Assembly: GCA_046760785.1 (NCBI GenBank)
Contig: JBHIET010000007.1
Coordinates: forward strand, 736-64,735
Reading direction: 5' to 3'
Length of the DNA: 64,000 nt
From: Anaerolineae bacterium
GTDB taxonomy: Bacteria; Chloroflexota; Anaerolineae; B4-G1
Shown here piece by piece: positions 7,047-57,436 of the stretch; the first letter of the stretch is position 1, and each line of letters starts with the position of its first letter. The position numbers were made by a program, and so were the translations under genes. The notes beneath the pieces were generated by a model. The model did not search any database. It saw only the letters and a program-made list of their open reading frames with translations, and was not told the DNA's origin.

Positions 7047-7085
7047 CGACGACATGAAGCAACTGCGCACTTCACGCTGTATCGC

Positions 7086-7114
7086 TTGACGCTACCAGAC
7101 TATTATGGTACTAT
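7086..7114 (+). promoter_or_regulatory. Candidate sigma70-type promoter
   Basis: TTGACG (7086-7091), 17 nt spacer, TACTAT (7109-7114), upstream of the LysM lipoprotein gene. Confidence 0.4.
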
Positions 7115-7167
7115 GCAAAGCGTACAGTGATTCGGCTGATGCGGCACATAAGGAAGGAGGTAGCCCC

Positions 7168-26900: not shown

Positions 26901-28268
26901 ATGGCCAAGACACGCACCCAATGGGTCTGCCAAAACTGTGGGCGGACGACGCCCCGCGAGATGGGTCGTTGCCCCGGCTGCGGTGAGTGGAACACGATGG
27001 TTGAGGTAATCGAGCAGCCAATCGCCGCATCGGCCGGCATTTCGACCATCCCCGGCAGTGAGCCGTGCCGCCTGACTGAGATTGAAACCGAGGGACTGGA
27101 GCGCCTGCCGCTGCCGCTGGGGGAATTTGCCCGCGTGCTGGGCGGCGGCGTCGTGCCTGGCTCGCTTATTCTCGTTGGTGGAGATCCTGGAATAGGCAAA
27201 AGCACCTTGTTGCTCCAGACGGCGTCGCTAATGGCGGAGGCGACGGGCCAGCCCGTGTTATACATCTCCGGCGAGGAGTCGGCGCGGCAGATCAGGATGC
27301 GCGCCGACCGGCTCTCCATCCGCAACGAGAACCTGTTCGTCGTCACCGAGACCAACCTAGAGGCGATCCTGCGCCACGCGGAACGGATCCAGCCGCTGGC
27401 GATGATCGTGGACTCGATCCAGACCGTCACCTCGGAGGAACTGACCTCGGCGGCAGGCTCGATCAGCCAGGTGCGCCAGGCGGCGAACCGCTTCCAGTGG
27501 TGGGCCAAAGCCGAGGGCGTGTCCGTCTTCCTGGTAGGTCACGTGACCAAGGAAGGGGCCATCGCCGGGCCGAAGGTGCTGGAGCACATCGTGGACACGG
27601 TGCTCTATCTGGAGGGCGACCGCTTCCACACCTACCGGCTGCTGCGCTCGGTCAAGAACCGCTTCGGGGCCACCTCGGAGGTGGGTGTGTTCGAGATGCG
27701 GGAGCAGGGAATGGTCGAGGTGCCGAACCCCTCGGAGGCGTTTCTGGCCGAGCGCATGGTCAACGCGCCGGGGTCGGCCATCGCGGTGACGATGGAGGGC
27801 ACGCGCCCGTTACTGGTCGAGGTACAGGCCTTGGCCAGCCACACCAGCTTCGGCCATCCGCGCCGCACGGCCAACGGCGTGGACTTCAACCGACTGCTGC
27901 TGATCACCGCTGTGCTGAGTAGGCGGGTGGGGCTGCGGCTTTACGATCAGGACGTCTTCGCCAACGTGATCGGGGGGTTGCAGGTGGGGGAGCCGGCGGC
28001 GGACCTGGCGGTGGCGGTAGCCATCGCCTCCAGCGTGCGCGACCGGCCCGTCAAGGCTGATCTGGCCGTCGTCGGCGAGGTGGGGCTTTCGGGCGAGGTA
28101 CGGGCCGTGGGACGGACGGCGGCGCGGCTGAAGGAGGCAGCCCGGCTGGGGTTCCGTCGCTGCTTGCTGCCCAAGCCGGTGCGGCGCGGAGGGGAGCCGC
28201 TGCCCGAGGGCATCGAGGCCGTCCCCGTGCGCTCGGTGGCCGAGGCGGTGGAGAGGGCGTTGGTGTAG
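26901..28268 (+). CDS. radA: DNA repair protein RadA/Sms
   Basis: Contains the zinc finger CQNCG...CPGCGEWNT, Walker A GDPGIGKST, the KNRFG motif and a Lon-like C-terminus. Confidence 0.95.
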   Translation: MAKTRTQWVCQNCGRTTPREMGRCPGCGEWNTMVEVIEQPIAASAGISTIPGSEPCRLTEIETEGLERLPLPLGEFARVLGGGVVPGSLILVGGDPGIGKSTLLLQTASLMAEATGQPVLYISGEESARQIRMRADRLSIRNENLFVVTETNLEAILRHAERIQPLAMIVDSIQTVTSEELTSAAGSISQVRQAANRFQWWAKAEGVSVFLVGHVTKEGAIAGPKVLEHIVDTVLYLEGDRFHTYRLLRSVKNRFGATSEVGVFEMREQGMVEVPNPSEAFLAERMVNAPGSAIAVTMEGTRPLLVEVQALASHTSFGHPRRTANGVDFNRLLLITAVLSRRVGLRLYDQDVFANVIGGLQVGEPAADLAVAVAIASSVRDRPVKADLAVVGEVGLSGEVRAVGRTAARLKEAARLGFRRCLLPKPVRRGGEPLPEGIEAVPVRSVAEAVERALV

Positions 28269-28369
28269 CGAGAAGTGAACCGCGCCACCGTAAACAGGCG
28301 GCGCTGGGGGCATACCAGCACCGGTGCTTCAGACCGGTGCGGCGCTGGTGTAGCGTCTTGGGGGAGATA

Positions 28370-28378
28370 TGTTATAAT
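28370..28378 (+). promoter_or_regulatory. Candidate extended -10 promoter element
   Basis: TGTTATAAT (TGnTATAAT) lies 18 nt upstream of the restriction-enzyme ATG. No good -35 is present. Confidence 0.35.
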
Positions 28379-28395
28379 CGGGTACGAGGTCAACG

Positions 28396-29796
28396 ATGAC
28401 GAAGAAAAGCGCAATTCCATTCGGCGCCCAATTTAGTCCCAACCAGGTAGACCTACCAGGTTTACTTCAAATCATCCACGAATACGCAGGCGACCGCAAC
28501 AGAATCACCGAAGCTATCCGTGACCAATTCTTTGCGACCCACTCCCAGACTCAACGCTGGAAACTGGCCGATAACACCGTACTGGCGTTGCGGGCATATG
28601 AGTTGCTGGGCGAAGACGGCGCAACGCCGACTACATTGGCGGGAGAATTGTTGGCGATTGCCAACGCACTTGATGCGCTTTATGAGCGGTTCGCCAAACA
28701 TATTCTGATTAACCTCAGAGGCATCCCCTTCGTAGAAACGTTGGAGATAATGCGAACGGCTGGTGAGAAGATCACCCTTCCCACTTTGAGAAAGCGTCTT
28801 GGGCAACGTGGGCTACACGTTCCACGCGGCACAGTACACATTAGCAGCATGCGCTTGTGGCTAGCGCAAGCAGGCATTTTCGACGCAAGTGTCAAAGGTG
28901 GCCCAAGGTTGTACGAGGCTGACCAGGTGCGTCTGAATGAAGTGCTTGGCATTGGGCTGGATGCGATTGATAGCTTGACTCAACTCAATGCAGCCCAACG
29001 AGCCTTCTTGCGCGCCCTCACGCGCCTTGCTGAGCCAGACCCCTTTGTTGCCAACAAGGTGGCCGATCTGGCAAGTGCGCTCTACGCAGTGGAGTATAAT
29101 CACAAGGAGTTACCAAAGTCCGTTTTGTTCCCGCTGCGTGACCTTGGGTATATACAGGCGACAAAAACGACGACGGGACGCGGTGCCAAACCTTATGAAG
29201 TCTCACGGACGCCCAAATTTCACCAGGAGATTTCCGAGCCGATTCTTGCAGCGGCGGCCGATAAGGCTGGACTGGTTCCCAAAGAGGTCTTTGCACTCCC
29301 CTTGTCGCAGATACTCACTGACCTCAAGTCACCCAACAAGCACGTTAAGGGCAAGGCGCTTGAACTGCTGACAATCTACCTCACCCGCTTGATTGATTTG
29401 GATTTCAAAGGTTGGCGCACACGCGGTGCAGACACAGGTGGAGCCGAAGTGGATGTGATTGTTGAAGGGATGCGGCTTATCTTTAGCCGCTGGCAGATTC
29501 AGGCTAAGAATACCAGAATCGTTCGATTGGACGACGTCGCAAAAGAAGTCGGCTTGTCACTCACATTTATCTACTCCAACGTCGTGATGATTGTGACAAC
29601 CGGTGATTTCACCAAGGACGCCTACAGCTACGCTCAACACGTGATGAAGACTTGTAACCTCAACGTCATTCTGTTGAACGGTTCCGAACTTGAGCGCATC
29701 AGTCGAGACCCAACAGGCATTGTAGCCATTCTCAATAGCAAAGCCGAACAAGCGATGAAGGTAAAAGAGCGTAAGGACTACTTTGCGACTCAGTAG
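28396..29796 (+). CDS. Restriction endonuclease with a C-terminal Mrr-like PD-(D/E)xK domain
   Basis: 466 aa. The C-terminus has GGAEVDVIVEG...RWQIQAKN...VMIVTTGDFT, typical of the Mrr_cat core. It sits next to a methyltransferase in a lower-GC region. Confidence 0.7.
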   Translation: MTKKSAIPFGAQFSPNQVDLPGLLQIIHEYAGDRNRITEAIRDQFFATHSQTQRWKLADNTVLALRAYELLGEDGATPTTLAGELLAIANALDALYERFAKHILINLRGIPFVETLEIMRTAGEKITLPTLRKRLGQRGLHVPRGTVHISSMRLWLAQAGIFDASVKGGPRLYEADQVRLNEVLGIGLDAIDSLTQLNAAQRAFLRALTRLAEPDPFVANKVADLASALYAVEYNHKELPKSVLFPLRDLGYIQATKTTTGRGAKPYEVSRTPKFHQEISEPILAAAADKAGLVPKEVFALPLSQILTDLKSPNKHVKGKALELLTIYLTRLIDLDFKGWRTRGADTGGAEVDVIVEGMRLIFSRWQIQAKNTRIVRLDDVAKEVGLSLTFIYSNVVMIVTTGDFTKDAYSYAQHVMKTCNLNVILLNGSELERISRDPTGIVAILNSKAEQAMKVKERKDYFATQ

Positions 29797-29805
29797 GCAG
29801 AGGAG

Positions 29806-30837
29806 ATGCTTATGACCGAGATTCATTTTCGAAAAGAACCATTCTATGTAACCCAATACGGCGCGGCCTACCTGGGGGATGCGCTGGTCTACTTGCGTCA
29901 AATGGAGCGTGACTCAGTTGATTTGATTGTGACCTCGCCACCATTTGCCCTGAAGCGCAAGAAGGAATACGGCAACGTTGATGCCAAAGATTATGTACCG
30001 TGGTTTATGGTCTTCGCGGTTGAGTTCAAGCGGATACTCAAGGACACTGGTAGTCTGGTCATTGACATCGGTGGCTCCTGGGTCAAAGGTCAACCAACTC
30101 GCTCGTTATATCACTTTGAACTCGTGATCGCTCTGTGCAAGACATTGGGGTTCCACTTGGCCCAAGAGTTCTATTGGTACAATCCATCCAAGCTGCCCTC
30201 TCCTGCCGAGTGGGTGACAGTGAGGCGGGTTCGCGTTAAGGATGCAGTCGACCCAATCTGGTGGCTGTCAAAGACACCAGATCCTAGAGCGAGCAATTGG
30301 CGCGTACTGAAGCCTTACAGCGATTCGATGAAGAAGTTGTTGCAGAATGGCTACAAAGCGAAACTGCGACCTTCAGGACATAACATCTCGGAGAACTTCT
30401 CGAAGGACCATAAGGGGGCCATTCCGCCAAACCTACTGGAATTAGCAAATACCGACTCCAACAGCACTTACTTGCGTGAGTGTCGCGAGCGTGGTATTAA
30501 ACCTCACCCAGCGCGATTCCCGCATGGCTTACCAGAGTTCTTTATTAAGTTTCTCACCGAGCCTGGCGACCTGGTGGTTGACCCGTTTGCGGGCAGCAAC
30601 ATCACCGGCGAGGTGGCCGAACGACTAGAAAGGCACTGGTTAGCGTTTGAGATAATCGAAGAATACCTCGAAGCCTCAAAGTTTCGTTTTTCTGGCTTAC
30701 ATGAGCAACCGTTCCTATTCACGATGCGAGCAGAAGCTTCCGAAACGGAAACTGCTGGCGATGAAGAAGTGGTTTCACAACCACAGCTTCTTGAACCTAG
30801 AGCGCAATATGAAACCGAGCGTGAGAAGGGAGAATAG
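29806..30837 (+). CDS. Beta-class DNA methyltransferase (N4-cytosine or N6-adenine)
   Basis: Motif IV DLIVTSPPF is N-terminal and motif I VVDPFAGSNITG is C-terminal. The start may instead be the ATG at 29812, which is better spaced from GAGGAG. Confidence 0.85.
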   Translation: MLMTEIHFRKEPFYVTQYGAAYLGDALVYLRQMERDSVDLIVTSPPFALKRKKEYGNVDAKDYVPWFMVFAVEFKRILKDTGSLVIDIGGSWVKGQPTRSLYHFELVIALCKTLGFHLAQEFYWYNPSKLPSPAEWVTVRRVRVKDAVDPIWWLSKTPDPRASNWRVLKPYSDSMKKLLQNGYKAKLRPSGHNISENFSKDHKGAIPPNLLELANTDSNSTYLRECRERGIKPHPARFPHGLPEFFIKFLTEPGDLVVDPFAGSNITGEVAERLERHWLAFEIIEEYLEASKFRFSGLHEQPFLFTMRAEASETETAGDEEVVSQPQLLEPRAQYETEREKGE

Positions 30838-30955
30838 CATTCCATAAACTGGGGCGACCTGTGCCCAAACCGCCACACTCCAGTGAATATGTGTACTTTC
30901 GCAGCAAGGCGCGGCATCGAGCACAAAACTAAATCTGGAGTGAAAGGAGCGAAAT

Positions 30956-31729
30956 ATGACTCTCATACTGACTCATCTGAATAGGTATGGAATCATACAT
31001 GCAAGCGACTCTAGTCTGACCGCAGGGGACATGGATGCTGGTCAAGGCCAGAAGACCTTCGAAGTGCCATTTCTCAATGCAGGACTAACTGTTGCAGGCG
31101 CGTTTTCAGTCGGCAGGGAGGAAATGGACATCTGGATGAACGATTTTATCCAATCCCAAGCCAGCGTAAATGGCTTGACTCTCTCAGGATTTGCACATCG
31201 TCTAGAAAGCGAATTGCAGTCCAGAATGCTTCCTGGGGAAAAGGATGGGGGTAGCATGGTACACATTGCGGGCTACGCAAAAGAAGGCAATACATATCAT
31301 CCTGAGTTTTGGTTTATTAGCAATGTTCATGCCATTGACCGTAAGACGGGGGAATATGGCGGTATAGACTACAACTTCAAGTCATCTGAAGATTTCTGGA
31401 CAAGAGACTGCCCGGAGAACAACTTGATGAAGCGTTTCCAGGAACATGCAGGCGCGTACCAGATCTATGTGAATGGGTTTGCTCCTGGACGGATAAGCTA
31501 TGTCTTCCTTCAACGTGTTATGAATGAGTTCCTCCGTACAGTTTGGGGTAATCCAAATTGGAAATTCAGACCACCGCAGTCTTTGAAAGAGACAGAAATC
31601 CTAGTGAAGATGTACATACAGGTCATCATAAATCTCTTTCTATTGAGCGACTACAGCGCGAGGTTCATTGGCGGCGAGCCCCAAATCTACGCGATACCTC
31701 AACCTGAGAACGTAGTCACGTCGTGTTGA
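30956..31729 (+). CDS. Proteasome-beta/Anbu-like Ntn hydrolase (putative)
   Basis: MTLILTHLNRYGIIHASDSSLTAG...GQKTFEV...LTVAGA aligns by eye to the proteasome beta pattern T1...GxxxxxD17...K33...AG. Thr follows the initiator Met, and Asp is exactly 16 residues later. AAAGGAG RBS. Confidence 0.55.
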   Translation: MTLILTHLNRYGIIHASDSSLTAGDMDAGQGQKTFEVPFLNAGLTVAGAFSVGREEMDIWMNDFIQSQASVNGLTLSGFAHRLESELQSRMLPGEKDGGSMVHIAGYAKEGNTYHPEFWFISNVHAIDRKTGEYGGIDYNFKSSEDFWTRDCPENNLMKRFQEHAGAYQIYVNGFAPGRISYVFLQRVMNEFLRTVWGNPNWKFRPPQSLKETEILVKMYIQVIINLFLLSDYSARFIGGEPQIYAIPQPENVVTSC

Positions 31730-31767
31730 CCGTTACAGGCTGCATAGTGGTGGCAAGGGACTGCGTA

Positions 31768-32634
31768 ATGCCCGACCCAACCAATCCACTAGAATACTAC
31801 GCCCGTCCGGGCATCATGACCGACCCTGGAGAACACGCCGAACTGTTCAATGGTCTACCTGCCGAGATCCCTGCTCTCTGCCAGGTCGTGCAGGGACTCT
31901 TGTTGCACATCTTCTGGGCGGAACGGCACGGCGTGGAGTTATCGGAGGAGCGGAAGCAAGAGGTAAACGTCCGTCAAGTCTCGCACATGCTGGCACACAT
32001 TCGAGAGATGGATGACCATCCTCTCACCGTCGAGCGGTCGTTGGACAAGAAGCTGGTGGGCAACTGCCGCGACTTTTCTACGCTGTTATGTGCGATGTTG
32101 CGCCACCAGGGCGTGCCCGCACGGGCACGCTGCGGGTTCGGTGCGTACTTCGAGCCTGGTCATTACGAAGATCACTGGGTCTGCGAGTACTGGAACGCCG
32201 AAGAAAAGCGCTGGGCGCTGGCGGACACGCAACTGAATGAGTTTCAGCAGGAAACCTTGAAGATCGCGTTTGACACTTATGACGTACCCCGCGATCAATT
32301 TCTGGTCGGCGGCAAGGCCTGGCAGATGTGCCGCGCGGGCCAGGCCGACCCGGACAGCTTCGGCATCTTAGATATGCACGGGATGTGGTTCATTCGCGGC
32401 AACCTGGTGCGGGATCTGGTATCGCTCAACAAGATCGAAATCCTGCCCTGGGACCACTGGGGACTTATGTCCAAGGAGGAGCAAGACCTATCCGCAGAGG
32501 ATATGGCATTGCTGGATCGCATCGCCGAATTGACGGTGGCGGTTGCGACGGACGATGGAGCATTCCACGAGGTGTGTGCACTCTACGAAACTGACGCACG
32601 CTTGCATAAGCCGTCCGATTGGCTGCCGGACTGA
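31768..32634 (+). CDS. Transglutaminase-like cysteine protease superfamily protein
   Basis: Contains VGNCRDFSTLLCAMLRHQGVPARARCGF (catalytic Cys context) and YEDHWVCEYW (His). Start set at MPDPTNPLEYY. The track start at 31723 is a TTG. Confidence 0.75.
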   Translation: MPDPTNPLEYYARPGIMTDPGEHAELFNGLPAEIPALCQVVQGLLLHIFWAERHGVELSEERKQEVNVRQVSHMLAHIREMDDHPLTVERSLDKKLVGNCRDFSTLLCAMLRHQGVPARARCGFGAYFEPGHYEDHWVCEYWNAEEKRWALADTQLNEFQQETLKIAFDTYDVPRDQFLVGGKAWQMCRAGQADPDSFGILDMHGMWFIRGNLVRDLVSLNKIEILPWDHWGLMSKEEQDLSAEDMALLDRIAELTVAVATDDGAFHEVCALYETDARLHKPSDWLPD

Positions 32635-32637
32635 GAT

Positions 32638-34938
32638 GTGATGACAAAGAGACGTACCACTAGGCGTTCAACGAGACGCACGAGCAGGCGCACAACCAGG
32701 CGCAGGAGTAGCCGCAGACGCCGCAAGCCGCCGTCGCTGCCGACCATCAACCTCACGCTTGACCAGTGGCTCGACATCCTGGGCTACGGGCTGCTCGTCA
32801 TTGCGGTCTTCACGCTCCTCAGTTTCCCCTCCGCCAAGAACGGGGTGATCCTCGGCTGGTGGCTGGGCCGACTGCGGCAGGCCTTTGGCTGGGGAGCCTA
32901 CCTGACGCCGCTGTTCGTCGGTGCGGTGGGGCTGTGGCTCGTCCTGCGTGATTTTGGCGACCAGTTGCCCAGAGTGACCCCGCTGCAAATCACGGGTGTG
33001 GTGCTGGGCTACCTGGCCCTCTTAGTTACGCTTCACCTCCCGACGGCGTCACTCCGGTTCGGGGGTGACCTCCGGGCGACGGCCGAGGCCGGCCTGGGCG
33101 GCGGGCGCCTGGGCGCGGCGCTGGGCCGCTGGTTGCTGGGTGGGCTGGGCAGCGTGGGCACGGGCATCGTGCTGGTCACCTGGTGGCTGATCGTCGTCGC
33201 ACTCGTCTTTGGGGTCACGGCGCAGGACGCCGTGCGTGTGCTCGAACGGTTGCGAGGCAAGCCTCGACCACAGCGCGTCAGACCCCTACCCAGGCCGGCG
33301 GTTCCCACGACGGCGAGCCATCCCTCCGAGCCACCCCCTTCGCCACCGCGCGAGGTGCCCGTGGCTCCGAAGCCGGTCGCTGTTGTCCCAACCCCCGTTC
33401 GGCCTGCTCCGACTCCCTTGCCTGCCGCTCCTACCCCCCTCTCTCCCATCGGCGGCGATCAGGTGTGGGGACCTCCCACCTTGGACGAGATCCTCGAGCC
33501 CGGCAACGATCAAAGCATCAGCGCGGGGATACTGCGCCAACAGGCGCGCATCATCGAGGAGACGCTAAGAGAGCTCGGCGCGCCAGTTCGGGTCCACGAG
33601 ACCAACATCGGCCCCGTCGTAACCCAGTTCGCCGTCGAGCCGCTGGTAACGGCCAACAGTAATGGCAAAGAGACCAAGGTCAAAGTCAGCCATATCAGGG
33701 CACTGGCCAACGACCTGGCATTGGCGCTGGAGGCCAAGACGTTGCGCATCCAAGCTCCCATCCCCGGCAAGGGGCTGATCGGCATCGAGGTGCCCAACCC
33801 GGAGATTTCGCTGGTCGCGCTGCGGGACGTGATGGAATCCGAAGCGTTCGCGGAGATTGACTCCCCGTTGCGACTGTGCCTGGGGCAAGATGTCTCTGGC
33901 CATTCCATCGTCGCCGACTTGACCGCTATGCCCCACCTACTCATCGCCGGTACGACCGGCTCGGGTAAGTCGGTCTGCATCAACGGTATCATCGCTGCGT
34001 TGCTTCTGCAGAACAGCCCCGAGGAGTTGAAATTCCTGATGGTAGACCCCAAGCGGGTGGAGTTGACGGGGTACAACGGCATCCCGCACCTGCTGTCGAA
34101 AGTCGTGGTGGAGATGGAGCGAGTGGTGGGCGCGCTCCAATGGGTGCTGCGGGAGATGGACGGGCGATACCGCCGCTTCTCCAAGGTGCGTGCCATCCAC
34201 ATCCGCGACTACAACGAGCGCGTCGCGCCGAGCCGGGGCGAGAAACGGTTACCCTACATCGTGGTCGTCGTGGACGAGCTGGCGGATTTGATGATGATGG
34301 CCCCCCAGGAGACGGAGCGCTCCCTCTGCCGCATCGCCCAGATGGCGCGGGCGACCGGCATCCATCTCATCATCGCCACCCAGCGCCCCAGCGTGGACGT
34401 GGTCACCGGGCTGATCAAGGCCAACTTCCCGGCGCGCATCGCCTTCAACGTGGCTTCGACCGTGGATTCGCGGGTCATCCTCGATATGCCCGGTGCGGAG
34501 CAACTGCTGGGCCGGGGCGACATGCTGTTTCTGCCTCCCGATACTGCCACTCCCCTGCGCTTGCAGGGTGCCTTCGTCTCCGACGAAGAGCTGCGCCGCT
34601 TGGTGCAGTACTGGAAGGAGCAGGCGCGGCCAGGACCGATACCCGCCGAAAAGCCGGTGCAGCGACCGCTGTGGGAGGAGATGCGTCAGAAAGTGCGGAA
34701 AGTGGAGTACGAGGACGAGTTGCTGCCCGAAGTGATTGATTTGGTGTTGCGGGAGCAGCGCGCTTCCATCTCGCTCCTCCAGCGCAAACTGCGTATCGGC
34801 TACACGCGGGCAGCGCGGATCATGGATATCCTCGAACAGCACGGGGTCGTGGGGCCACAGCCGCCAGGCGGCAAGGCACGCGAGGTCTTCCCCAGCGCGG
34901 CCCACGCGCTGCTCCACCCCCAGGGGGAGGAACAATGA
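32638..34938 (+). CDS. ftsK: DNA translocase FtsK/SpoIIIE
   Basis: Arg-rich N-terminus, four TM helices, a P-rich linker, Walker A GTTGSGKS, and a gamma-domain winged helix ISLLQRKLRIGYTRAARIMD. Confidence 0.95.
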   Translation: MMTKRRTTRRSTRRTSRRTTRRRSSRRRRKPPSLPTINLTLDQWLDILGYGLLVIAVFTLLSFPSAKNGVILGWWLGRLRQAFGWGAYLTPLFVGAVGLWLVLRDFGDQLPRVTPLQITGVVLGYLALLVTLHLPTASLRFGGDLRATAEAGLGGGRLGAALGRWLLGGLGSVGTGIVLVTWWLIVVALVFGVTAQDAVRVLERLRGKPRPQRVRPLPRPAVPTTASHPSEPPPSPPREVPVAPKPVAVVPTPVRPAPTPLPAAPTPLSPIGGDQVWGPPTLDEILEPGNDQSISAGILRQQARIIEETLRELGAPVRVHETNIGPVVTQFAVEPLVTANSNGKETKVKVSHIRALANDLALALEAKTLRIQAPIPGKGLIGIEVPNPEISLVALRDVMESEAFAEIDSPLRLCLGQDVSGHSIVADLTAMPHLLIAGTTGSGKSVCINGIIAALLLQNSPEELKFLMVDPKRVELTGYNGIPHLLSKVVVEMERVVGALQWVLREMDGRYRRFSKVRAIHIRDYNERVAPSRGEKRLPYIVVVVDELADLMMMAPQETERSLCRIAQMARATGIHLIIATQRPSVDVVTGLIKANFPARIAFNVASTVDSRVILDMPGAEQLLGRGDMLFLPPDTATPLRLQGAFVSDEELRRLVQYWKEQARPGPIPAEKPVQRPLWEEMRQKVRKVEYEDELLPEVIDLVLREQRASISLLQRKLRIGYTRAARIMDILEQHGVVGPQPPGGKAREVFPSAAHALLHPQGEEQ

Positions 34939-35579
34939 GCTACACGATCCACAAACTGACATACGCTGATGGGCGGGCCTACCGTTATCACATCTCCGAC
35001 GAGGCCGGAAACCTGCGCTACGTGGCCGAGCGAACCGGTATGCTGCTTCCATCTCCAACGCGGCTGGTCGAGTTCTTCGACCCCGATCACAACCCATCCG
35101 GCCGTCTCCAGCCGCCGGAGGTCGCACCGTGGCTGCGCGGGAAGCGGTACGAGGTTTTCGTCAACAAAGGGGGCGAGGAGGCAGAGGAGCCCTACGCCGT
35201 GATCAAGGAGACGTGGAGGCTGGTGGACATTTTGCTGTTGCGCCTCCCGCGCTACGAGGTGCAACTGGGGGAACACTGCTACATCGTGCGGGGCAGCCGC
35301 TACGGGGAGCACTTCTACGAGATCTTCCGTCCGTGCGAGGAGGAGGAAGGAATTGATGAGGAACGAGTAGATGAGAAAATGGAGCAGGGGGAGGATGAAC
35401 AAGCGGAGGCAGGGGAAGGTGAGGAAGAGCCTGAGCCCAAGGAGATGAAGGTGGGTCAGATTCAGCGCCCTACGGTCGGCCCCAGCTATACCGTCGAAAG
35501 CGATGCCGCGCCGTTGCGCCAGGCTTTGTTAGTACTGGCCGCGCTGGTGATTCTTATTGATATGGAACTGCACCCTTGA
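34935..35579 (+). CDS. Hypothetical protein with an acidic linker and C-terminal TM helix
   Basis: 214 aa. ATGA overlap with the ftsK stop. Family not recognised; it may be tubby/LURP-like. Confidence 0.6.
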   Translation: MSYTIHKLTYADGRAYRYHISDEAGNLRYVAERTGMLLPSPTRLVEFFDPDHNPSGRLQPPEVAPWLRGKRYEVFVNKGGEEAEEPYAVIKETWRLVDILLLRLPRYEVQLGEHCYIVRGSRYGEHFYEIFRPCEEEEGIDEERVDEKMEQGEDEQAEAGEGEEEPEPKEMKVGQIQRPTVGPSYTVESDAAPLRQALLVLAALVILIDMELHP

Positions 35580-47600: not shown

Positions 47601-47762
47601 GAGCTCTACCTGGGCCGCGCTGGGGGCAGCTTCGCCCGCTTCCTGCGGCTGGAGAACAGCCTGGCCGATGGGATCTATTACTACACCGACCGGCACCTGG
47701 GAGAAGAGTGGGCAGCGTACAAGGCCGCCAGAAAGGAGAGCGGGGAGCAGACCAATGAGTGA
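44673..47762 (+). CDS. cas10d: Type I-D large subunit Cas10d (Csc3) with an N-terminal HD-like domain
   Basis: 1029 aa. Has H...H(E)xxHK motifs (SHFAHIING, FTVHEVHKD, RIADTF) and the Zn ribbon CSICN...CPVCQ. It lies in an operon with csc2/csc1/cas3'. A GGGAGGAG RBS precedes the ATG at 44673. Confidence 0.8.
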   Translation: MPTVSEIEQVLNEYVEKYIPVMLRQGYHLVLVKGGPDYPHLPEQSHFAHIINGAFGLTQLVKFLIEHNVRVPGLDEETFRKALALFTVHEVHKDAEVELLGDSQFSIPLERLREEYQRLGLDQFAPVDEYLMRAANVHKRSSKHGDLLLSDDPNAAQLWLWVRIADTFASVKTPEEAKASLEGYLADLGPAFAPKSPPGKYTLYYHEIKDVRGVLTNTVHQAVAQQLAGDLGFFPLLYFATGTLYLGPAQLDGDADDAIPAVAEWVLQSLTQGGGGDAIRDGLRRQKFDFERYVYAFATVKDLLQVVHDETLTAKPDARVALKEIDGLVSKRQELSAEWRDTVEERFGIQLLDPKEHKTFNELWSQVRRYLLYVDTLLRDLNPAENRLEWFLRVFAIPQPYADNLRREADIWAKGGIGKYVLVIAYHFLRGPDFADRPAEATPPEQVLERLHRRVLEAFRQVDTQAGRQAAVAELGLRQDLEAYLAEHLYLSFAPASQLAADSLAGYVSPKRKGHTGQVCSICNRRSEYVQSLRAGILDDFGRVFSNRVLPAREAPQGNRLWCPVCQLEFILRKVMGMGLPSTAHYKNSRRIYLYVLPTFSFTLEHLRLFEPLLKPFHRVTGLPVRDYGKGDPGLPRYWLEHRAFDPDWVEDLQEVLEREADKIAGWGGRGFVGERVSLGRITGQPHYYLITWEKAARDTEPDDARIATRTEAWCKALFAAAVISGLTSCKVYVTERPYLPVADPAELRATITLDGPPPALRGLLGGRTDEVTLYGREKGERSGLERVLDLSAALWAVTADVHAPQRNTKDKHISGRLGTLNTSPLAGATFYKEYGRLNEGQSPFPTLTTACEVLLEVQGGELMDLVEKIAQKSLEIALPRGASGRGKARRYELVFREAVSAMRQAQKMIPEMREAAIGGRRPSAQSIAELKRLTAGTLLKGLERRQESRRGEIFVRAWGDQLGRLVGEFVDLLVDELYLGRAGGSFARFLRLENSLADGIYYYTDRHLGEEWAAYKAARKESGEQTNE
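47262..47762 (+). CDS. cas11d: Candidate internally translated small subunit Cas11d (nested in the cas10d frame)
   Basis: A near-perfect internal SD, AAGGAGGTGA (47249-47258), lies just upstream of the in-frame ATG at 47262. The 166-aa helical product starts MDLVEKIAQKSLEIAL... Confidence 0.45.
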   Translation: MDLVEKIAQKSLEIALPRGASGRGKARRYELVFREAVSAMRQAQKMIPEMREAAIGGRRPSAQSIAELKRLTAGTLLKGLERRQESRRGEIFVRAWGDQLGRLVGEFVDLLVDELYLGRAGGSFARFLRLENSLADGIYYYTDRHLGEEWAAYKAARKESGEQTNE

Positions 47763-49968
47763 ATTCGACTTTGGACCAATCTCACGCACGGTGGACGCCT
47801 CAACCGGTCGAGGCGATGCCATCAACTTTGCCTCACTGCCGGTCCACGAAGCGCTGACGGCCCTGCTGGCGAGCAACAAGGCGAGCAACAACCGGGATGA
47901 ATTTGTCGCCTGGCTGTGGCACGACCTGTTCAAGCCGTTGTTCTGGTGGCAATGGAATGCACGTAAGAGAAAATTTGATTGGATCCACTATCCCAACAAT
48001 AGACCAAATGATCCACTAAATGTTGAGGCACACTGGTCAAGTGTGACAGGAATTCCATCCGGTCTGGTGGAAACGCATCACCTTCACAGTGGCCGCAAGT
48101 TTAGGTTTGGGGAAACGGAAACGATTAACAACGAGTTCGACCAGGTTGCCATAGGAAAGGATGCCCGTTTTGTCCAACTCTCCTTCCTGGTCGAACCTGC
48201 TACCCATACTGCCCTGCTCCGTGCCGTGATCGCCGACGCCTTTATGGAAGTCGTGACGAAAGCGGTTGCTGCATCCATCGGAACGGAACTGGCAACCAAG
48301 TCGCCTACCTTCAAACGAGTCCGCTATGTTTTTGATTTCGATCAGGTCGCGCTGTCTAGCCCGCCCACCAGTTCAGAGATTGCGTCTCTGGCGAACCAAT
48401 ACACTTTGGACGTCACTTCTGATGAACTGATCATCAAGCACTTGGTGCCCCTTGCCAAACCGGACCTGGACGGACGTCACGTTGAGGTTGTGCTTGATTT
48501 GACCGCCGAGCCACCGACTGCAGAGCGGTTTGGCCAGGGCATAATCTCGTTGGTGGAGTTGTTGACCGTTTACCAAGACAGTCGTACCATCCTAATGGGT
48601 ATCCCTCAGTTTCTGACGGTGGATGTTGGGCAACTGACGCAACAGGTGCAGAGTGCAACAGAGCAGCGGCTACAGGGCCTGGATATTCGGACAATGGCAA
48701 ACACGGTTGAGCTCAAGCGGCAGGGCACAACACAAGGTCGTGTGAACTGGGATGCTCTGCCACTGAACAAGCAAGGTCAGGAGGTTGATTTGCTGGCACA
48801 CGTGTTTGCCGAGCAGGTGGAAATCCGCCTGATCGACCGAGGCCGATTGCTCCAAAAGGTCAAAGCCTCCAAAGGGAAATCCTTCGAGGTTCGTTTCCTC
48901 AGCGAGATCGTGTCGCATCCCATTGCATTGCTTGCTGGCAAACCTCGTCACTGCCGTTTCTGCAACTCGGCGTTCGAGAGCAATCTTCCCCCAGCCGACG
49001 CAAAAGTAGGAGGCTATTTCACCGATATTGAGCACGTTGGCTTTGGCGGCGACATTTGCCCGATGTGCCGTGTTTATATACTCAACTCCCACAAGTCCCA
49101 TACCGAGGCCGAAAGAGCGCAAGGCATTACAGGGGACCGGAAGGGATATCGTGGGGCTTTTGCCATCGCTTCTCCTTCCTCCCATTTCACCTATGATGGG
49201 GAACAGTGTCAGCTCATCGAGCAACCTCCACTGGATATCGGCGGCCGCTTCGCTGCACCCTTGCAACGGGCCACAGTCACCCTGCAGGAATATGCCCTGT
49301 TCAATATGCTTTCTCGTCGGCTCATCGCCCAGATTTGGACCCGGCTGGATGCTGCTAACGAGATGCAACCACTGCCCCTGCCATATGTGGGGGCCATTCT
49401 GTTAACCCAAAACAAAGCGGCTCAAATTCGGACACTGTTCGACTGTCTGGAGGTGCTCTTTGACAAAGTGGAACTTGTGGCATATCCGTTCAAGGTAACC
49501 GTACAGCCGGCTGCAGAACTGGCTTTCGAGATGGCGGTGAACGACCTGAAACAGCATCACACCAAACATACCTATCTGAAGACCAGCCCCATCATTGTCC
49601 CTGTACATCCAGACAGCAAGTTCACCCTCCTGGTGGACAACGGACTTCAGTTGGAGGTGAACTGCAAGTTCTTTGAGGATCGAAGGCGAGTGAACGAGCT
49701 TTTGGAGGACATCAAAGGTCAGAAGCGACAACACAATTGGCTTCTGGCCGTGCTTCAAGGCATAGACCCGGTGACAGCAACGGCGGAAACTTTCTATGAT
49801 TATGACGTGCCACTCCGGCAGGCCGAAGAGGCGTTTTGGAATACACGCTTGAATGCCGAGTCTCTTGCCCAGCAATGGCAACGATATGAAAAAGTGTGCG
49901 ACGAGGTTGGCCGCATTGTGGCCAGGTATCCGATGTTGATTGAGTTCTTTGCCAAACCAGGGAGGTAA
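47755..49968 (+). CDS. Second large-subunit-like protein: N-terminal HD motif + Zn ribbon (Cas10d-like / type IV-C Csf1-like)
   Basis: 737 aa. The ATG overlaps the cas10d stop (ATGAGTGA). Contains PVHEAL...AWLWHDLFKP (H...HD..K) and CRFCN-x41-CPMCR, which parallels CSICN-x44-CPVCQ of Cas10d. GC is lower than in the flanking genes. Confidence 0.6.
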   Translation: MSEFDFGPISRTVDASTGRGDAINFASLPVHEALTALLASNKASNNRDEFVAWLWHDLFKPLFWWQWNARKRKFDWIHYPNNRPNDPLNVEAHWSSVTGIPSGLVETHHLHSGRKFRFGETETINNEFDQVAIGKDARFVQLSFLVEPATHTALLRAVIADAFMEVVTKAVAASIGTELATKSPTFKRVRYVFDFDQVALSSPPTSSEIASLANQYTLDVTSDELIIKHLVPLAKPDLDGRHVEVVLDLTAEPPTAERFGQGIISLVELLTVYQDSRTILMGIPQFLTVDVGQLTQQVQSATEQRLQGLDIRTMANTVELKRQGTTQGRVNWDALPLNKQGQEVDLLAHVFAEQVEIRLIDRGRLLQKVKASKGKSFEVRFLSEIVSHPIALLAGKPRHCRFCNSAFESNLPPADAKVGGYFTDIEHVGFGGDICPMCRVYILNSHKSHTEAERAQGITGDRKGYRGAFAIASPSSHFTYDGEQCQLIEQPPLDIGGRFAAPLQRATVTLQEYALFNMLSRRLIAQIWTRLDAANEMQPLPLPYVGAILLTQNKAAQIRTLFDCLEVLFDKVELVAYPFKVTVQPAAELAFEMAVNDLKQHHTKHTYLKTSPIIVPVHPDSKFTLLVDNGLQLEVNCKFFEDRRRVNELLEDIKGQKRQHNWLLAVLQGIDPVTATAETFYDYDVPLRQAEEAFWNTRLNAESLAQQWQRYEKVCDEVGRIVARYPMLIEFFAKPGR

Positions 49969-49972
49969 TTCA

Positions 49973-50452
49973 ATGGCTGAAAATCAGAAATCATCGCGGG
50001 AACAGCGTCTGCGCCGGGCTTACGAAGCCATCGAGCAGATGCAGTTGGGCGAGCGCGAAGCGGAAGTCAAACTGGCGCTCAAGGCGTTGCTGATAGCGCG
50101 AGGGTGCATTCGTCTGCCTGAGACACCGCAAGCCCGCCGCAAGACACTTCAGCGGCTCTATCCGGCACTCGTCAAGTATTCGAGAGCCTCGGAAGCGGAA
50201 ACACTGGGTGCTCTGGTAAACGACGTGATCGGTGCTCTGTCGCCCGATTGGGATTTCTCCCCCCATCGCGCTCTCGGAGACCCTGTGGAAGACATCTACC
50301 AGGAGAGCGAAACGGCCAAACGGGCCAGAGAGCTCCTTAAGGAAGAGACCGTCCCTCTGGTCATCTTGATGAAAAAGATCTACCAAAGCTTCATCGAACC
50401 CGAAGAAGCGACTGAGGAAGAACAGGCAGAAGAGGAGGCCAGCCATGCATAA
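49973..50452 (+). CDS. Small all-helical protein, Cas11-like small subunit candidate
   Basis: 159 aa, preceded by a GGGAGG RBS. It is predicted helical by composition, with an acidic tail. Its position between the large subunit and a Cas7-like gene supports the call. Confidence 0.5.
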   Translation: MAENQKSSREQRLRRAYEAIEQMQLGEREAEVKLALKALLIARGCIRLPETPQARRKTLQRLYPALVKYSRASEAETLGALVNDVIGALSPDWDFSPHRALGDPVEDIYQESETAKRARELLKEETVPLVILMKKIYQSFIEPEEATEEEQAEEEASHA

Positions 50453-51437
50453 CCTGAAACTGTACGCCTTGTATCAGGCCAAGCAACCCATCATTCACAC
50501 TGAGGAGACCATCGGCAACATCTCCAAGATCAAAAAGATGCGCGTCATTCACGATGGCAAGCCTGTACCGGTGCCGACCCTCTCCGGCAACAGCTTCCGC
50601 GGCCAGTTCCGCGACATCCTGGCGGACCAGATGTTCGCCATTCTGACCAACGGTGGTGCCAGCCGTGTCAAACTCCCCCCTGACCATTACGGCGTTATCT
50701 ACAGCGGCGGCGTGATGAAGGAGGGCTCCAAGATGGGGGAGCAGATGAAGGCGATGGCTGACGCCATTCCTATGCTGCGACTGATGGGCTCGGCCTTTGG
50801 CAACGTGATGCTTCCATCAAAGTTGGCCGTGACCCACATCATTCCCTACGCGGTGGAAACGCAAGCCGTTGTCCAATCTACGGTGAATGCGCTGCCGGAC
50901 GAAGGGCGTGCCTTGTTGCCGGCGGAGCCACCCAGTCGCGGTGATTTGCTGTTCAACGATGGCCCACTGACCCGCAAGGATGACACCAAAGACCTGACCA
51001 AACAGCGCTACGCCGAGACAGAAGCAGACCTGGGCCAGGACGAAGAACGCACCCGCCGCCAGATGATCTACTACGTCGAGTGTATTCCTGCCGGAACGTT
51101 CCTGCTCCAGGAGATGTACAGCAAATATCCCCTGGACGATCTGGAACTGGGCTGCTTCTTCGATGGCCTGCTCACTTTTCTCCAGGAACCCAGCCTGGGT
51201 GGACGCAGCGCAGCAGGTTATGGGCAGGTACTGGCAAGGTACTGGGTACAATTGGAAGGCAAAGACCCGTTCGAGTTGACATCGGAGCAGGCGATCACAC
51301 TTCCCCAGCCGGTGCAGGATGCTATTGAGCAATACCGAAAGTGCGTGGAGAAACAGCAACAAGCTTTTCTCGGCGCGTTGAAAGCCAAAACCATTTCTGA
51401 GGAGGCGCAAGATGACGCCCCCGACTCCACGGAGTAG
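50445..51437 (+). CDS. RAMP protein, Cas7-like (Csf2/Csm3-like backbone subunit candidate)
   Basis: 330 aa. Contains TLSGNSFRGQFRD (compare the RAMP motif SGxSxRGxxR), LMGSAFGN, and the G-rich loop SLGGRSAAGYGQV. There is an 8-nt overlap with the previous gene. Confidence 0.65.
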   Translation: MHNLKLYALYQAKQPIIHTEETIGNISKIKKMRVIHDGKPVPVPTLSGNSFRGQFRDILADQMFAILTNGGASRVKLPPDHYGVIYSGGVMKEGSKMGEQMKAMADAIPMLRLMGSAFGNVMLPSKLAVTHIIPYAVETQAVVQSTVNALPDEGRALLPAEPPSRGDLLFNDGPLTRKDDTKDLTKQRYAETEADLGQDEERTRRQMIYYVECIPAGTFLLQEMYSKYPLDDLELGCFFDGLLTFLQEPSLGGRSAAGYGQVLARYWVQLEGKDPFELTSEQAITLPQPVQDAIEQYRKCVEKQQQAFLGALKAKTISEEAQDDAPDSTE

Positions 51438-52506
51438 GAGTAAAAGAGCTTTTCCTCTGAACGAGGAAGCCTGGCAACTGCTCAATGATACTGCCAGGGC
51501 AGTATCTTACGACCTGAGCGACGATACCGTCTACGAGCTGCGTCTGCGCCTGCAAACGCCCGGCATCTTTGCCCTGTACAAGGCCGACATCCCGGCTCCG
51601 GGACTGCCCATGCTGGATGGCTTCTTAAAGTTCGTGGCCTTTCAACAAGCGATGGACCAGGTAATGCGGAAAAGGCCAGACTTGACCAATGACTTGCTGT
51701 GGCAATGGAACCTGGCGCTTCGTGACACCCGGTACTGGATAGACTTTTGTATCCCCATTCGCCAAGAGACACTCAATAGCGGCATTGTGCTCTATGACTG
51801 TTCGGTCGGTTTGCCGGTGACTCCAGAAGATGACGTTCTCTATCCGACGGGCGCCTTTTTTGCCTGCGGGGGTAACCTGACCACCTACCCATCTGAAGAA
51901 AAAGGGCCGGCCGACCAGATTGCCTTGCGTCGCCGCTCTGTAGAACCAGTTTATCGACCCTTTGAATTGACCGGTAAATTGAACCCCCAGAGTGGTTCCA
52001 GAAAGGCGTTGGACAACCGTATCTATTACGCTCTCACCCAGGAATACACCTTCTACTTCCGAGGGGACAAAGATGGCGTCAGGCAATTATTGCACTTTGC
52101 TCTTCAGCAAGGGGTCGGCATCGGGAAAAAGACTTCGTTGGGGTATGGGCGCATTGCCCAGCTTGAGATTCAACCTGCCAACCAGTGCGTTACTCTCGGA
52201 CACGACATCGGTTTGCCTGGTGTGCCCCGGATAGCCTTGCTCAAGAACGTTCCTTATCAGGAACTCCAACGCCGAAGCATCCGGCAGAGTGGTGAGTTTG
52301 GGCTTGTTCAGGTAAAAGAAGGGAATCAGTGGAAGGACATCCTTACGCAGAATGAACGGGACCAAAACGAGAGGTTGTTCGGTGCCCGCGAGTTCAGCCT
52401 GGCCTCGCCCATCGAGACCTTTGATTGTTACTATCCGCCCTATTGGCGACGTGAAGGTCGCACGCAGGTGCTGAGATACGGCACTCTGCTCATACCACGC
52501 TCGTAA
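51412..52506 (+). CDS. RAMP protein, Cas5-like (Csf3-like candidate)
   Basis: 364 aa. Contains PMLDGFLKFVAF near the N-terminus and the G-rich loop GVGIGKKTSLGYGRI. A GAGGAGG RBS lies inside the upstream gene. Confidence 0.55.
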   Translation: MTPPTPRSRSKRAFPLNEEAWQLLNDTARAVSYDLSDDTVYELRLRLQTPGIFALYKADIPAPGLPMLDGFLKFVAFQQAMDQVMRKRPDLTNDLLWQWNLALRDTRYWIDFCIPIRQETLNSGIVLYDCSVGLPVTPEDDVLYPTGAFFACGGNLTTYPSEEKGPADQIALRRRSVEPVYRPFELTGKLNPQSGSRKALDNRIYYALTQEYTFYFRGDKDGVRQLLHFALQQGVGIGKKTSLGYGRIAQLEIQPANQCVTLGHDIGLPGVPRIALLKNVPYQELQRRSIRQSGEFGLVQVKEGNQWKDILTQNERDQNERLFGAREFSLASPIETFDCYYPPYWRREGRTQVLRYGTLLIPRS

Positions 52507-52520
52507 AGAAGGAGGTAAAA

Positions 52521-53525
52521 ATGACTCTGAAGACTTTACAACCCTACGCCAGCTATTTCGTTCCCGAGATCCCGCGCACACCCACCAATCGCTACGCCAG
52601 CATCATCCTGCTGCGGGAGACCAAGTCCTACGCCATCTTCACCACCGAGGGCGGCGAGCAGCAGGACGTGGAAGAGACCCCCGCCGGCCCGGCCCACACC
52701 GAGCCGACCACCCGCCTGGTGATGTTCAAGCGCAAGCAGGTGGCCCCGGAGCGACGCACCGGCAAGGCATTGCTGCGGCAATACGGTGTCTTTCCCTATG
52801 CCATCCAGGACGGACGGGTGGTCTATGGCGAAGAGGCGCTTCAGGCAAGGAAGCACTACGAGGACTGCTACCTCACCGAGGGTCTCTGCACCCACTGCCC
52901 CGACTGCCTGATCTACGGCTACGCCGCCATCGAGGCCGAAGGCGCCCGCAAAGCTCGCTTGATGACCGACACCTGCTTCACCGTCCGCCCCTACGAGATC
53001 ATCCAGAAGCAGGTCAAGTTCAACGTCATTGACGAGGCCCGGCACACCTCCGGCACCATCACCGAGTACGACTACACCACGCCGGGCGTCTTTCTCCCCG
53101 CCGTGGAGACGACGGTGGACCTGACTGCCGACGAGTTCGCCTACGTGCTGGGCAACGTCCTGCGCACCACCCGCTACGGCAAGGAGAGCACCCGCCAGGG
53201 CTTTGTGCGCAACCACATCCTGGCCATCGCCTTCTCCGACGTGGAACTCTTTGCCAACCTGGAGTTCACCCAGGCCCTCTACGACGCCCTGGTTGGCGCC
53301 GGCAAGGACCTGGCCGCCGAGGGCCTCTCGCTGGCCGACTTCCAACAGCACGCCGAGGCCGTCATTCAGCGGTTGACGGAGCAGTTGACCGGGCGGCTCA
53401 CCCTGGTCACCGGAGAGGAACTGGCGGGCATCCTGGAGGACGTGCGCGCCCTGAACCAGGACGAGGAGCGTCTGGCCGGGTTCCTACGAGACCTGAACAC
53501 GGCTTCGGCGTCGTTTGTGGTGTGA
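52521..53525 (+). CDS. csc2: Type I-D Cas7 (Csc2)
   Basis: 334 aa. Contains the LCTHCPDCLIYGYA Cys cluster and a Csc2-like body (FNVIDEARHTSGTITEYD, TRYGKESTRQGFVRN). AAGGAGG RBS. Confidence 0.8.
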   Translation: MTLKTLQPYASYFVPEIPRTPTNRYASIILLRETKSYAIFTTEGGEQQDVEETPAGPAHTEPTTRLVMFKRKQVAPERRTGKALLRQYGVFPYAIQDGRVVYGEEALQARKHYEDCYLTEGLCTHCPDCLIYGYAAIEAEGARKARLMTDTCFTVRPYEIIQKQVKFNVIDEARHTSGTITEYDYTTPGVFLPAVETTVDLTADEFAYVLGNVLRTTRYGKESTRQGFVRNHILAIAFSDVELFANLEFTQALYDALVGAGKDLAAEGLSLADFQQHAEAVIQRLTEQLTGRLTLVTGEELAGILEDVRALNQDEERLAGFLRDLNTASASFVV

Positions 53526-53659
53526 GGTCGCACGGCGGTTGAAACCGCATGCTGCGGGGTGCGAAACCGCCTGCGGCGGTTGGGGGGGCTGCGCCGGCAG
53601 GCTTCGCCGCCCCCAGCCCGCGAATTCATTCGCCGGGCAGAAAGAGAAGGAGCATCAGT

Positions 53660-56511: not shown

Positions 56512-56536
56512 GGTAGGTGGGAGTGGAGAGGGAACG

Positions 56537-57409: not shown

Positions 57410-57436
57410 CAGCGGCCCTTTTCAAGGGACTTTGGA

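Follow-up and report, generated by a model that had tools for sequence, protein, structure and literature searches.

A divergent family of predicted stand-alone proteasome-like hydrolases, borne on genomic islands and recurrently located beside restriction-modification genes

Introduction

To our knowledge, HslV and the actinobacterial proteasome are the only bacterial proteasome homologues with a known function. In the largest survey of such homologues, Fuchs, Alva and Lupas (2021) described 22 orphan proteasome-like subfamilies (WPH, PHI, PMI-1 to PMI-6, DAH, GPH, FC1 to FC5, PPH, AAH, etc.) and found no genomic contexts that pointed to a specific function (PMC8665760). Anbu is encoded in operons with genes for a transglutaminase-like, an ATP-grasp, and an Alpha-E protein (PMC5666114), and connectase, a monomeric proteasome homologue of archaea, ligates proteins in a sequence-specific manner (PMC7980362). 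In this study, a further proteasome-like protein is described, which is encoded in a stretch of 64,000 nucleotides from an Anaerolineae bacterium (GenBank assembly GCA_046760785.1, contig JBHIET010000007.1, positions 736 to 64,735 of the forward strand; hereafter, the window). The protein has 257 amino acid residues, begins MTLILTHLNRYGIIHASDSSLTAG, and is encoded at 30956..31729 on the forward strand; it is referred to as the N-terminal nucleophile (Ntn)-like protein, and its relatives as the Ntn-like family.

An original prediction had taken this protein for an Anbu-like Ntn hydrolase which, with the transglutaminase-like (TGase-like) product of the next gene, forms a two-gene core inside a defence island. 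Both open reading frames (ORFs) are present as described (30956-31729 and 31723-32634), and the composition given for the Anbu operon agrees with the published one. The fold and the island setting of the Ntn-like gene were borne out, and its pairing with the TGase-like gene was not. Overall, the proteins form a divergent family of stand-alone proteasome-like hydrolases, which is borne on islands, linked to restriction-modification (R-M) systems, and present in no curated library that was queried. The explanation which we regard as probable is that the Ntn-like protein is a stand-alone proteasome-beta-like Ntn hydrolase, carried as island cargo beside an R-M system, and that a role in genetic conflict is the most likely one.

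Fold and catalytic residues

The AlphaFold2 model of the 257-residue protein has a pLDDT of 92.6 and a pTM of 0.90. Foldseek returned 230 matches to the PDB at E<=1e-3; the top 50 were all subunits of 20S proteasomes, nearly all of them beta subunits, from archaea, bacteria, and eukaryotes, with a probability of 1.0. The best TM-score among the proteasome matches was 0.64, normalised to the target. Matches to viral models included proteins annotated as proteasome beta or HslV. The best structural match overall was an uncharacterised protein of 289 residues from Gordonia phage Nymphadora (BFVD A0A142KAQ6; E 5e-8), which came ahead of every solved proteasome subunit with a TM-score of 0.64, normalised to the query. 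Through this match, the Ntn-like family may be connected with the proteasome homologues that Fuchs et al. described from phages or actinobacteria. As to the originally proposed fold, the model is of the proteasome-beta/HslV type; as to the Anbu assignment, no PF00227 or NCBIfam match was found, and the protein is not an Anbu by sequence.

Conservation was assessed on an alignment of 74 family sequences with identities as low as 29 %. Of these, 61 have Thr and 12 have Ser at position 2, so that a Thr or Ser follows the initiator Met in 73/74; Asp18 and Gly48 are present in 74/74, Lys33 in 73/74, and Asn123 and Gly239 are invariant as well. None of the 74 sequences has any residue ahead of Met1, which indicates that there is no propeptide. 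When the Met is not counted, the window protein has Thr 1, Asp 17, and Lys 32; in most family members a loop is longer by one residue, which places the Lys at residue 33. The Thr1/Asp17/Lys32 pattern first read from the single sequence is therefore real and not a chance motif, since its residues are kept in 73 or 74 sequences across this range, and on proper alignment the catalytic Thr, Asp, and Lys are all in place.

By profile-profile alignment with hhalign, and by single-sequence alignment too, T1, D17, K33, and A47-G48 fall in exact register with HslV. The hhalign comparison gave P=0.004 over 158 columns and an HHsearch probability of 8 %, with an HslV profile that was built from database hits and is shallow (86-99 % identity), so that the comparison carries less weight than a full HHpred run. 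Three distant relatives gave sub-threshold matches to PF00227 (E 0.03-0.12), again with the catalytic residues in register, and no proteasome was found when the family profile was searched against the PDB sequences. Among the features that define the T1 superfamily, the Ntn sandwich, a Thr or Ser nucleophile, and the Asp17/Lys33/Gly47 register were found; a significant match to a curated model (PF00227 or MEROPS T1) was not. Therefore, it appears that the family is a divergent branch of the T1 superfamily, and the 257-residue protein is predicted to have the fold and catalytic constellation of T1 peptidases.

Compared with beta subunits, the model has a long beta-hairpin at 113-145 and a two-helix insertion at 147-163, which carries the motif SEDFWxRD. 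Helices H3 and H4 are long and are joined by a conserved WKFRPP loop. The C-terminus is short, with the motif SDYxAPxIGG followed by a single strand (243-248), and helix H5 is missing. Four motifs are specific to the family: SEDFWxRD (144-151), which is near-invariant, NGFxxGR (173-179), WKFRPP (202-207), and SDYxAxFIGG (231-240).

Members and distribution of the family

The window protein has 163 close relatives in a collection of 5.8 billion proteins, and the Ntn-like family amounts to 323 representatives in a library clustered at 50 %. Nearly all of them have 250-265 residues and start with Met-Thr; they are labelled 'hypothetical protein' in every source, and nearly all come from metagenome-assembled genomes (MAGs). 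When the PADLOC models were compared with the 257-residue protein, 0 families matched at E<=1. At 40-60 % identity, the family was found in at least eight phyla (Chloroflexota, Acidobacteriota, Bacteroidota, Chlorobiota, Planctomycetota, Actinomycetota, Dormibacterota, and Parcubacteria/Moranbacteria). Such identity across phyla indicates horizontal spread. The Ntn-like family is uncharacterised and uncurated, conserved, and horizontally mobile.

The island and the transglutaminase-like gene

Four ORFs lie on the same strand between radA (26901-28268, +), the left flank of the island, and ftsK (32638-34938, +): those of a restriction endonuclease (REase), a DNA methyltransferase (MTase), the Ntn-like protein, and the TGase-like protein. 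The REase (28396..29796, +; 466 aa; GC 0.522) has a C-terminal Mrr_cat domain (Pfam, 1.9e-6), and the MTase (29806..30837, +; 343 aa; GC 0.506) is a Type II N6/N4 enzyme (Pfam N6_N4_Mtase, 2.4e-40; PADLOC MTase_II, 1e-123). The two genes are 9 nt apart, an adjacency that qualifies them as a Type II R-M pair. The Ntn-like gene begins 118 nt after the MTase, behind a Shine-Dalgarno sequence GGAG (30946..30949, +) which lies 6 nt 5' of its ATG, and its stop is followed by a spacer of 38 nt and the TGase-like gene (31768..32634, +; 288 aa from the ATG). An alternative GTG start at 31723 gives an ORF of 303 aa (31723-32634, +); in the gene calls on identical public contigs, the start is the ATG at 31768. 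With GC contents of 0.52 (REase), 0.51 (MTase), and 0.47 (Ntn-like gene), these three genes are poorer in GC than the flanking radA, ftsK, and VIT/VWA genes (0.64-0.68), in keeping with the low-GC island first proposed. The TGase-like gene, at 0.58, differs from the Ntn-like gene also at third codon positions (GC3 0.72 versus 0.51).

The TGase-like protein is what it had been taken for, a Cys-His protein of the transglutaminase type. It matches Pfam Transglut_core (PF01841) at 2e-9, with 38 bits against a cut-off of 23, and Cys100, His136, and Asp153 are invariant in 37 orthologues. Its AlphaFold2 model (pLDDT 94.4) retrieves 3ISR and transglutaminases with a Foldseek probability of 1.0, so that both marks of the superfamily, the papain-like core and the Cys-His-Asp triad, are present. 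With 3ISR, a putative cysteine protease of Cytophaga hutchinsonii, and with COG1305-type proteins, it has this core and triad in common; the 3ISR match covers about 177 of its 288 residues at a TM-score of about 0.35. Unlike those proteins, it is cytoplasmic, single-domain, and coupled to ftsK, and it has neither the Bact_transglu_N domain nor the partners of an Anbu operon.

The TGase-like protein has 5368 homologues, and orthologues that are 65-81 % identical occur in Chloroflexota and Anaerolineae MAGs. In four related genomes, the backbone order is VIT/VWA (-), radA (+), a variable cargo, TGase-like (+), and ftsK (+), followed, as in the window, by genes for a glycosyltransferase, CSD, RRM, and Mg-chelatase/VWA. 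At least four related Chloroflexota genomes have the TGase-like gene directly upstream of ftsK and lack the Ntn-like gene. Between the end of the TGase-like gene and ftsK there are 3-6 nt in the window, as in the three loci whose orthologues are closest; two further loci (L041 and L042) have a gap of about 190 nt. The conserved TGase-like/ftsK pair, which spans 31768-34938 in the window, was observed in L039, L040, L043, and L044, and this pairing suggests a role in cell division or chromosome segregation.

Since the TGase-like gene is a core gene upstream of ftsK, the island comprises the REase, the MTase, and the Ntn-like gene only. It lies at 28270..31767, with boundaries that are approximate and were drawn from per-gene GC, synteny, and a joint described below, and it is inserted at a hotspot between radA and the TGase-like gene, which thus stands outside the island and not within it as had been supposed. 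The hotspot (window 28269-31767; L039 5097-8000; L042 5395-6224; L043 6745-8000) holds a different cargo in each related genome: an NmeDI-type endonuclease with Fumble and HHH/DUF4332 genes, a HepT-like toxin, three small ORFs, or nothing. A contig of the marine-sediment run X5 passes directly from window position 28269 to 31794 and so omits 3524 bp; the shorter side of the joint has only 41 nt. This contig is consistent with an empty site in a related genome. At the island borders, a search for direct and inverted repeats gave only short two-copy matches at chance level and no att-like repeat, and a scan of the locus for promoters and terminators gave results at or below the shuffled expectation and was uninformative. 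The window sequence was found in four hydrothermal-vent metagenome runs, as an Anaerolineae-like Chloroflexota genome; RNA evidence for the Ntn-like gene was looked for, and the runs that hold the sequence are metagenomic DNA only.

The linkage of the two genes was surveyed in 110 family loci, 30 from species-representative genomes and 80 from metagenomes, which form 91 independent groups at <90 % identity, 76 of them with at least 1 kb downstream. A relative of the TGase-like protein was found in 0/110 loci by tblastn and in 0/110 by a profile of 120 orthologues at E<=10, which recovered the window gene at 6.6e-166 as a positive control. The survey that had been proposed for the pair therefore shows no conserved linkage, and the view that the two genes are an Anbu-like core falls with it. 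The TGase-like gene is a resident core gene of Chloroflexota, and its adjacency to the Ntn-like gene is accidental.

Neighbourhoods of the family

When the flanking ORFs of the 91 independent loci were clustered all against all, no conserved neighbour was found; the directly adjacent ORFs are unrelated even at E<=1, and so is a small ORF of about 150 aa which lies immediately upstream in several loci. In bulk Pfam scans of the nearest neighbours, no family occurred in more than 2/96 or 3/121. Genes that recur nearby are those of tyrosine integrases (7 loci) and large serine recombinases (5 loci), as well as IS66 and other transposases, a TrwC relaxase, PIN toxins, HepT, RadC, ArdC-N/IrrE, and an AbiEii-like ATPase. 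Apart from methylases, few of 96 neighbours match PADLOC. Overall, the Ntn-like gene lacks an operon partner and travels on integrative islands as a single-gene cargo.

Two copies of the same Ntn-like protein were observed on two contigs of one sample (L047 7001-8368 and L048 4904-6271). Downstream of either copy lie a 147-aa DUF2971 gene and transposase fragments; only one of the copies has a 688-aa N6_N4 methylase gene in front of it. Distant relatives, which are 28-31 % identical over the N-terminal half only, have a PIN-domain gene nearby in three loci (L020 5101-5535, L021 6892-7431, and L023 9964-10386).

Association with restriction-modification systems

In 9/92 independent loci, the window and eight others, the Ntn-like gene has a gene for a DNA methylase no more than 1.5 kb away. 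Those outside the window include a 688-aa N6_N4 MTase 29 nt upstream of the Ntn-like gene (L006), a 722-aa N6_N4 MTase downstream of it (L094), an N6_N4 MTase with a ResIII helicase in a Type III-like arrangement (L099), Eco57I/MmeI-type fused enzymes (L100/L101, L063, and L054), and an MTase fragment at a contig end (L120). In L121 (region 3713-7775), a fusion of HSDR_N and N6_Mtase and a Type I specificity subunit flank the Ntn-like gene. Its start lies 2 nt after the stop of the methylase fusion, behind a GGAGG, and at its end it shares 16 nt with the beginning of the Methylase_S gene; therefore, the Ntn-like gene is embedded in an R-M operon. The Ntn-like protein of this locus is a Ser-nucleophile variant (MSLILTQ...), and a LexA-like repressor gene lies directly upstream of the operon.

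Altogether, at least four R-M architectures (Type II, IIG/L, III-like, and RM+S) occur beside the family. Within 1.5 kb of the Ntn-like genes there are 8 methylase genes in 202 kb, compared with 3 in 450 kb beyond that distance, which is a 5.9-fold difference (binomial p=0.005) in a test where distance served as the internal control in place of a genome-wide background. The family thus co-localises recurrently with R-M systems of unrelated types, and this co-localisation suggests a defence-related or restriction-linked role. In marine-sediment and marsh metagenomes, Ntn-like fragments are 96-98 % identical to the window (about 98 % in X5 and about 97 % in X6), whereas the R-M fragments of the same runs are only 85-90 % identical, which hints that the Ntn-like gene moves independently. 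Of the recruitment to defence that had first been suggested for the gene pair, what stands is an association of the Ntn-like gene with R-M systems; the part assigned to the transglutaminase does not.

Proposed mechanism and role

By analogy with the T1 paradigm and with HslV, Met1 would be removed by methionine aminopeptidase, which would expose Thr1, or Ser1 in some members. The O-gamma of Thr1, tuned by Lys33 and Asp17, might then attack a peptide or amide carbonyl to form an acyl-enzyme, with the Ala47-Gly48 turn as the putative oxyanion hole. That the family-specific motifs are long and strictly conserved speaks for a defined substrate or partner over bulk proteolysis; the enzyme may thus act on one such target, in the manner of a specific peptidase or transpeptidase like connectase. 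As for its genomic origin, the Ntn-like gene probably arrived in, or beside, a Type II R-M cassette at the hotspot between radA and the TGase-like/ftsK pair.

We infer that the role is most likely conflict-related, either as an accessory or 'guard' of restriction systems or as an independent gene of defence islands; a function that benefits the mobile element, such as anti-defence, ranks second, and a niche housekeeping function is also possible. A more specific and quite tentative idea is a single-gene conflict system, in which a proteasome-fold threonine peptidase or transpeptidase guards R-M systems or cooperates with them. Inhibition of restriction might, for instance, trigger it to act on a defined protein of the host or of a phage, or the restriction subunit might be under its control. 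If this were true, it would be the first proteasome-like enzyme in prokaryotic immunity and would give the first functional context for any orphan bacterial proteasome homologue; a genuine R-M link would extend the repertoire of defence islands by a new enzymatic chemistry. The family combines a complete catalytic constellation with clear mobility and a reproducible context, R-M cassettes and integrative islands, in which it can be tested. In addition, a tempting wrong annotation is removed, as the supposed pair of an Anbu and a transglutaminase results from a coincidental insertion next to an ftsK-linked core gene.

Several observations weigh against the preferred explanation, that of a stand-alone proteasome-beta-like hydrolase carried beside R-M genes for a role in conflict. 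Since there is no significant sequence match to a curated T1 model and the HHsearch probability is that low, membership in the superfamily is argued mainly from the predicted fold and the register of the motifs; neither the 257-residue protein nor its profile matched Pfam, NCBIfam (E<=1), PADLOC, PHROGs, or the PDB sequences. In about 90 % of the family loci, no R-M gene was seen nearby; some loci are simply of a housekeeping kind (e.g. L049, where the gene lies between PPDK and a TPR gene), and most are short metagenomic contigs. The methylase seeds were adjacent genes, picked after the data had been seen, and they cover the N6/N4 and gamma classes only, not C5 or Dam-class enzymes; the enrichment test is therefore biased to the near zone. 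Finally, no family member was found by tblastn in 50,697 phage and 72,556 plasmid records or by a pattern scan of 2.9 million viral contigs, and so an origin from phages or plasmids is unsupported.

Alternative explanations

It is possible, at a tentative level, that the Ntn-like gene is an independent single-gene anti-phage defence, e.g. an abortive-infection protease, which merely shares defence islands with other systems. The islands do hold R-M genes, PIN and HepT toxins, an AbiEii-like ATPase, and integrases; the family is patchy across phyla at high identity, and the hotspot of the window elsewhere holds an NmeDI-type endonuclease or a HepT toxin. However, no PADLOC model matches the protein, few of its neighbours other than methylases do so, and several loci are housekeeping contexts. 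A literature search on proteasome-like or Ntn proteins in defence contexts, and on the family accessions, found nothing relevant, and hence no experimental precedent for a proteasome-fold defence protein.

An ordinary accessory housekeeping peptidase, like BPH and other orphans, for which islands and R-M loci would simply be the landing sites of acquired genes, is likewise a minor possibility. No informative context was found for the 22 comparable subfamilies of Fuchs et al. (PMC8665760), some Ntn-like loci are of the housekeeping kind, and the density of methylases in the far zone is itself high, which is consistent with generic islands. The concentration of methylases within 1.5 kb and the embedding in the L121 operon speak against it, and a patchy distribution dominated by horizontal gene transfer (HGT) is atypical for housekeeping genes.

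Rather doubtful is a dedicated R-M accessory, that is, a latent protease which is restrained by the R-M complex, or watches over it, and fires once a phage anti-restriction protein has disabled that complex, or one which degrades the restriction subunit as the cassette becomes established in a new host (restriction alleviation). The PrrC anticodon nuclease, which sits embedded in the EcoprrI hsd locus, offers an analogy for the guard version. Tight same-strand adjacency to R-M genes in the nine independent loci, the translational embedding between methylase and specificity genes in L121, and the roughly six-fold methylase density near the gene all favour such an accessory. However, most loci have no R-M gene, and that the partners come from unrelated R-M types speaks against a specific protein-protein interface. 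The closer identity of the Ntn-like fragments than of the R-M fragments in X5 and X6 suggests independent movement, and in the window itself the MTase gene lies 118 nt away from the Ntn-like gene, which has a lower GC content than the R-M genes.

Cargo that serves the mobile element itself, by an anti-defence, addiction, or establishment function such as the cleavage of a host defence or repressor protein, is unlikely. The neighbours include integrases, serine recombinases, the TrwC relaxase, ArdC-N/IrrE, RadC, and IS66, and the LexA-like repressor upstream of the L121 operon would also fit, but searches of the phage, plasmid, and viral-contig collections found no family member, and none of the backbone genes of elements is conserved among the neighbours.

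An Anbu-like module, in which the Ntn hydrolase and the TGase-like protein work together and were recruited to defence, is highly improbable: the two genes are on the same strand, 38 nt apart, and with no predicted terminator between them, and transglutaminases do occur in Anbu operons (PMC5666114), but no family locus has a TGase-like relative, the TGase-like gene stands upstream of ftsK in relatives without the Ntn-like gene, the two genes differ in composition (GC and GC3), the protein has no PF00227 or NCBIfam match whereas a bona fide HslV gives one, the syntenic block contains neither an ATP-grasp nor an Alpha-E gene, and the model lacks a long C-terminal helix.

Other features of the window

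Downstream of the TGase-like/ftsK pair, an ORF of 214 aa (34935-35579) overlaps the ftsK stop by 4 nt; its product is acidic, has a hydrophobic C-terminal tail, and has no Pfam match. In L041 and L042, its position is taken by an unannotated gene of 204 aa.

The window also contains a CRISPR-Cas locus, with genes at 47668-59731 and an array region at 60208-64000. The genes encode Csc2 (Cas7d-type; 52521-53525), Cas1 (58335-59432), and a probable Cas2 (59432-59731), and upstream ORFs of 766, 330, and 364 aa have no Pfam match. The array is long and continues as far as the window does; its 37-nt repeat, GCTCAACAAAACAGAATCCCGACTGAGGGATTGAAAC, recurs about every 73 nt, and the array explains why 59-64 kb is low in GC and strongly AT-skewed.

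Comparison with known proteasome-like systems

The Ntn-like protein shares with the 20S beta subunits and HslV (MEROPS T1, PF00227) the predicted alpha-beta-beta-alpha Ntn fold and the Thr1/Asp17/Lys33/Gly47 residues in register. As in E. coli HslV, which begins Met-Thr-Thr, the nucleophile directly follows the initiator Met and there is no propeptide. In contrast to these enzymes, it has no significant sequence similarity to a curated model; it carries the long hairpin and the SEDFWxRD two-helix insertion and ends without H5; and Ser129 of the GSG motif (position 177) is not kept in the family. No HslU/AAA+ partner and no alpha subunit was found among the neighbourhoods surveyed. An identification as HslV was considered and rejected, with 257 aa against about 175 aa, a difference of about 80 residues, and no HslU-like AAA+ gene in any neighbourhood.

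Anbu is similar in being a free-standing bacterial proteasome-beta homologue of about 250 aa, without an AAA+ partner and with a Thr1 that is exposed by removal of the Met. The Ntn-like protein differs from it in having no sequence match, in lacking the long C-terminal coiled-coil helix of Anbu in its model, and in having no such operon, as its TGase-like neighbour is the ftsK-linked core gene; CP_ATPgrasp and Alpha-E were absent among the 25 families listed in each of two neighbour surveys. Anbu identity was rejected on the lack of a PF00227 or NCBIfam match, the missing helix H5, and the 0/110 linkage to a TGase-like gene.

The orphan subfamilies of Fuchs et al. are likewise highly divergent, and only searches that are sensitive or based on structure find them. 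They too have a Thr1/Ser1-Asp17-Lys33-Gly47 core, no propeptide, lineage-specific insertions, a patchy distribution, and no AAA+ partner. By comparison with their published description, the Ntn-like family differs in showing a context of R-M genes and integrative islands.

Connectase resembles the Ntn-like protein as a stand-alone proteasome fold with an N-terminal nucleophile directly after the Met, and it illustrates that this fold can serve one specific substrate. It lacks H1, H2, and has its insertion between S3 and S4 (PMC8665760), whereas the Ntn-like model keeps H1 and H2 and has its insertion after S7. Connectase is restricted to methanogens and was not among the top 50 PDB matches of the Ntn-like model.

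PrrC in EcoprrI is comparable in its setting, as a small unrelated gene inside an R-M operon, like the Ntn-like gene between the methylase and specificity genes of L121. PrrC is an anticodon nuclease and not a peptidase, and the comparison is one of functional analogy only.

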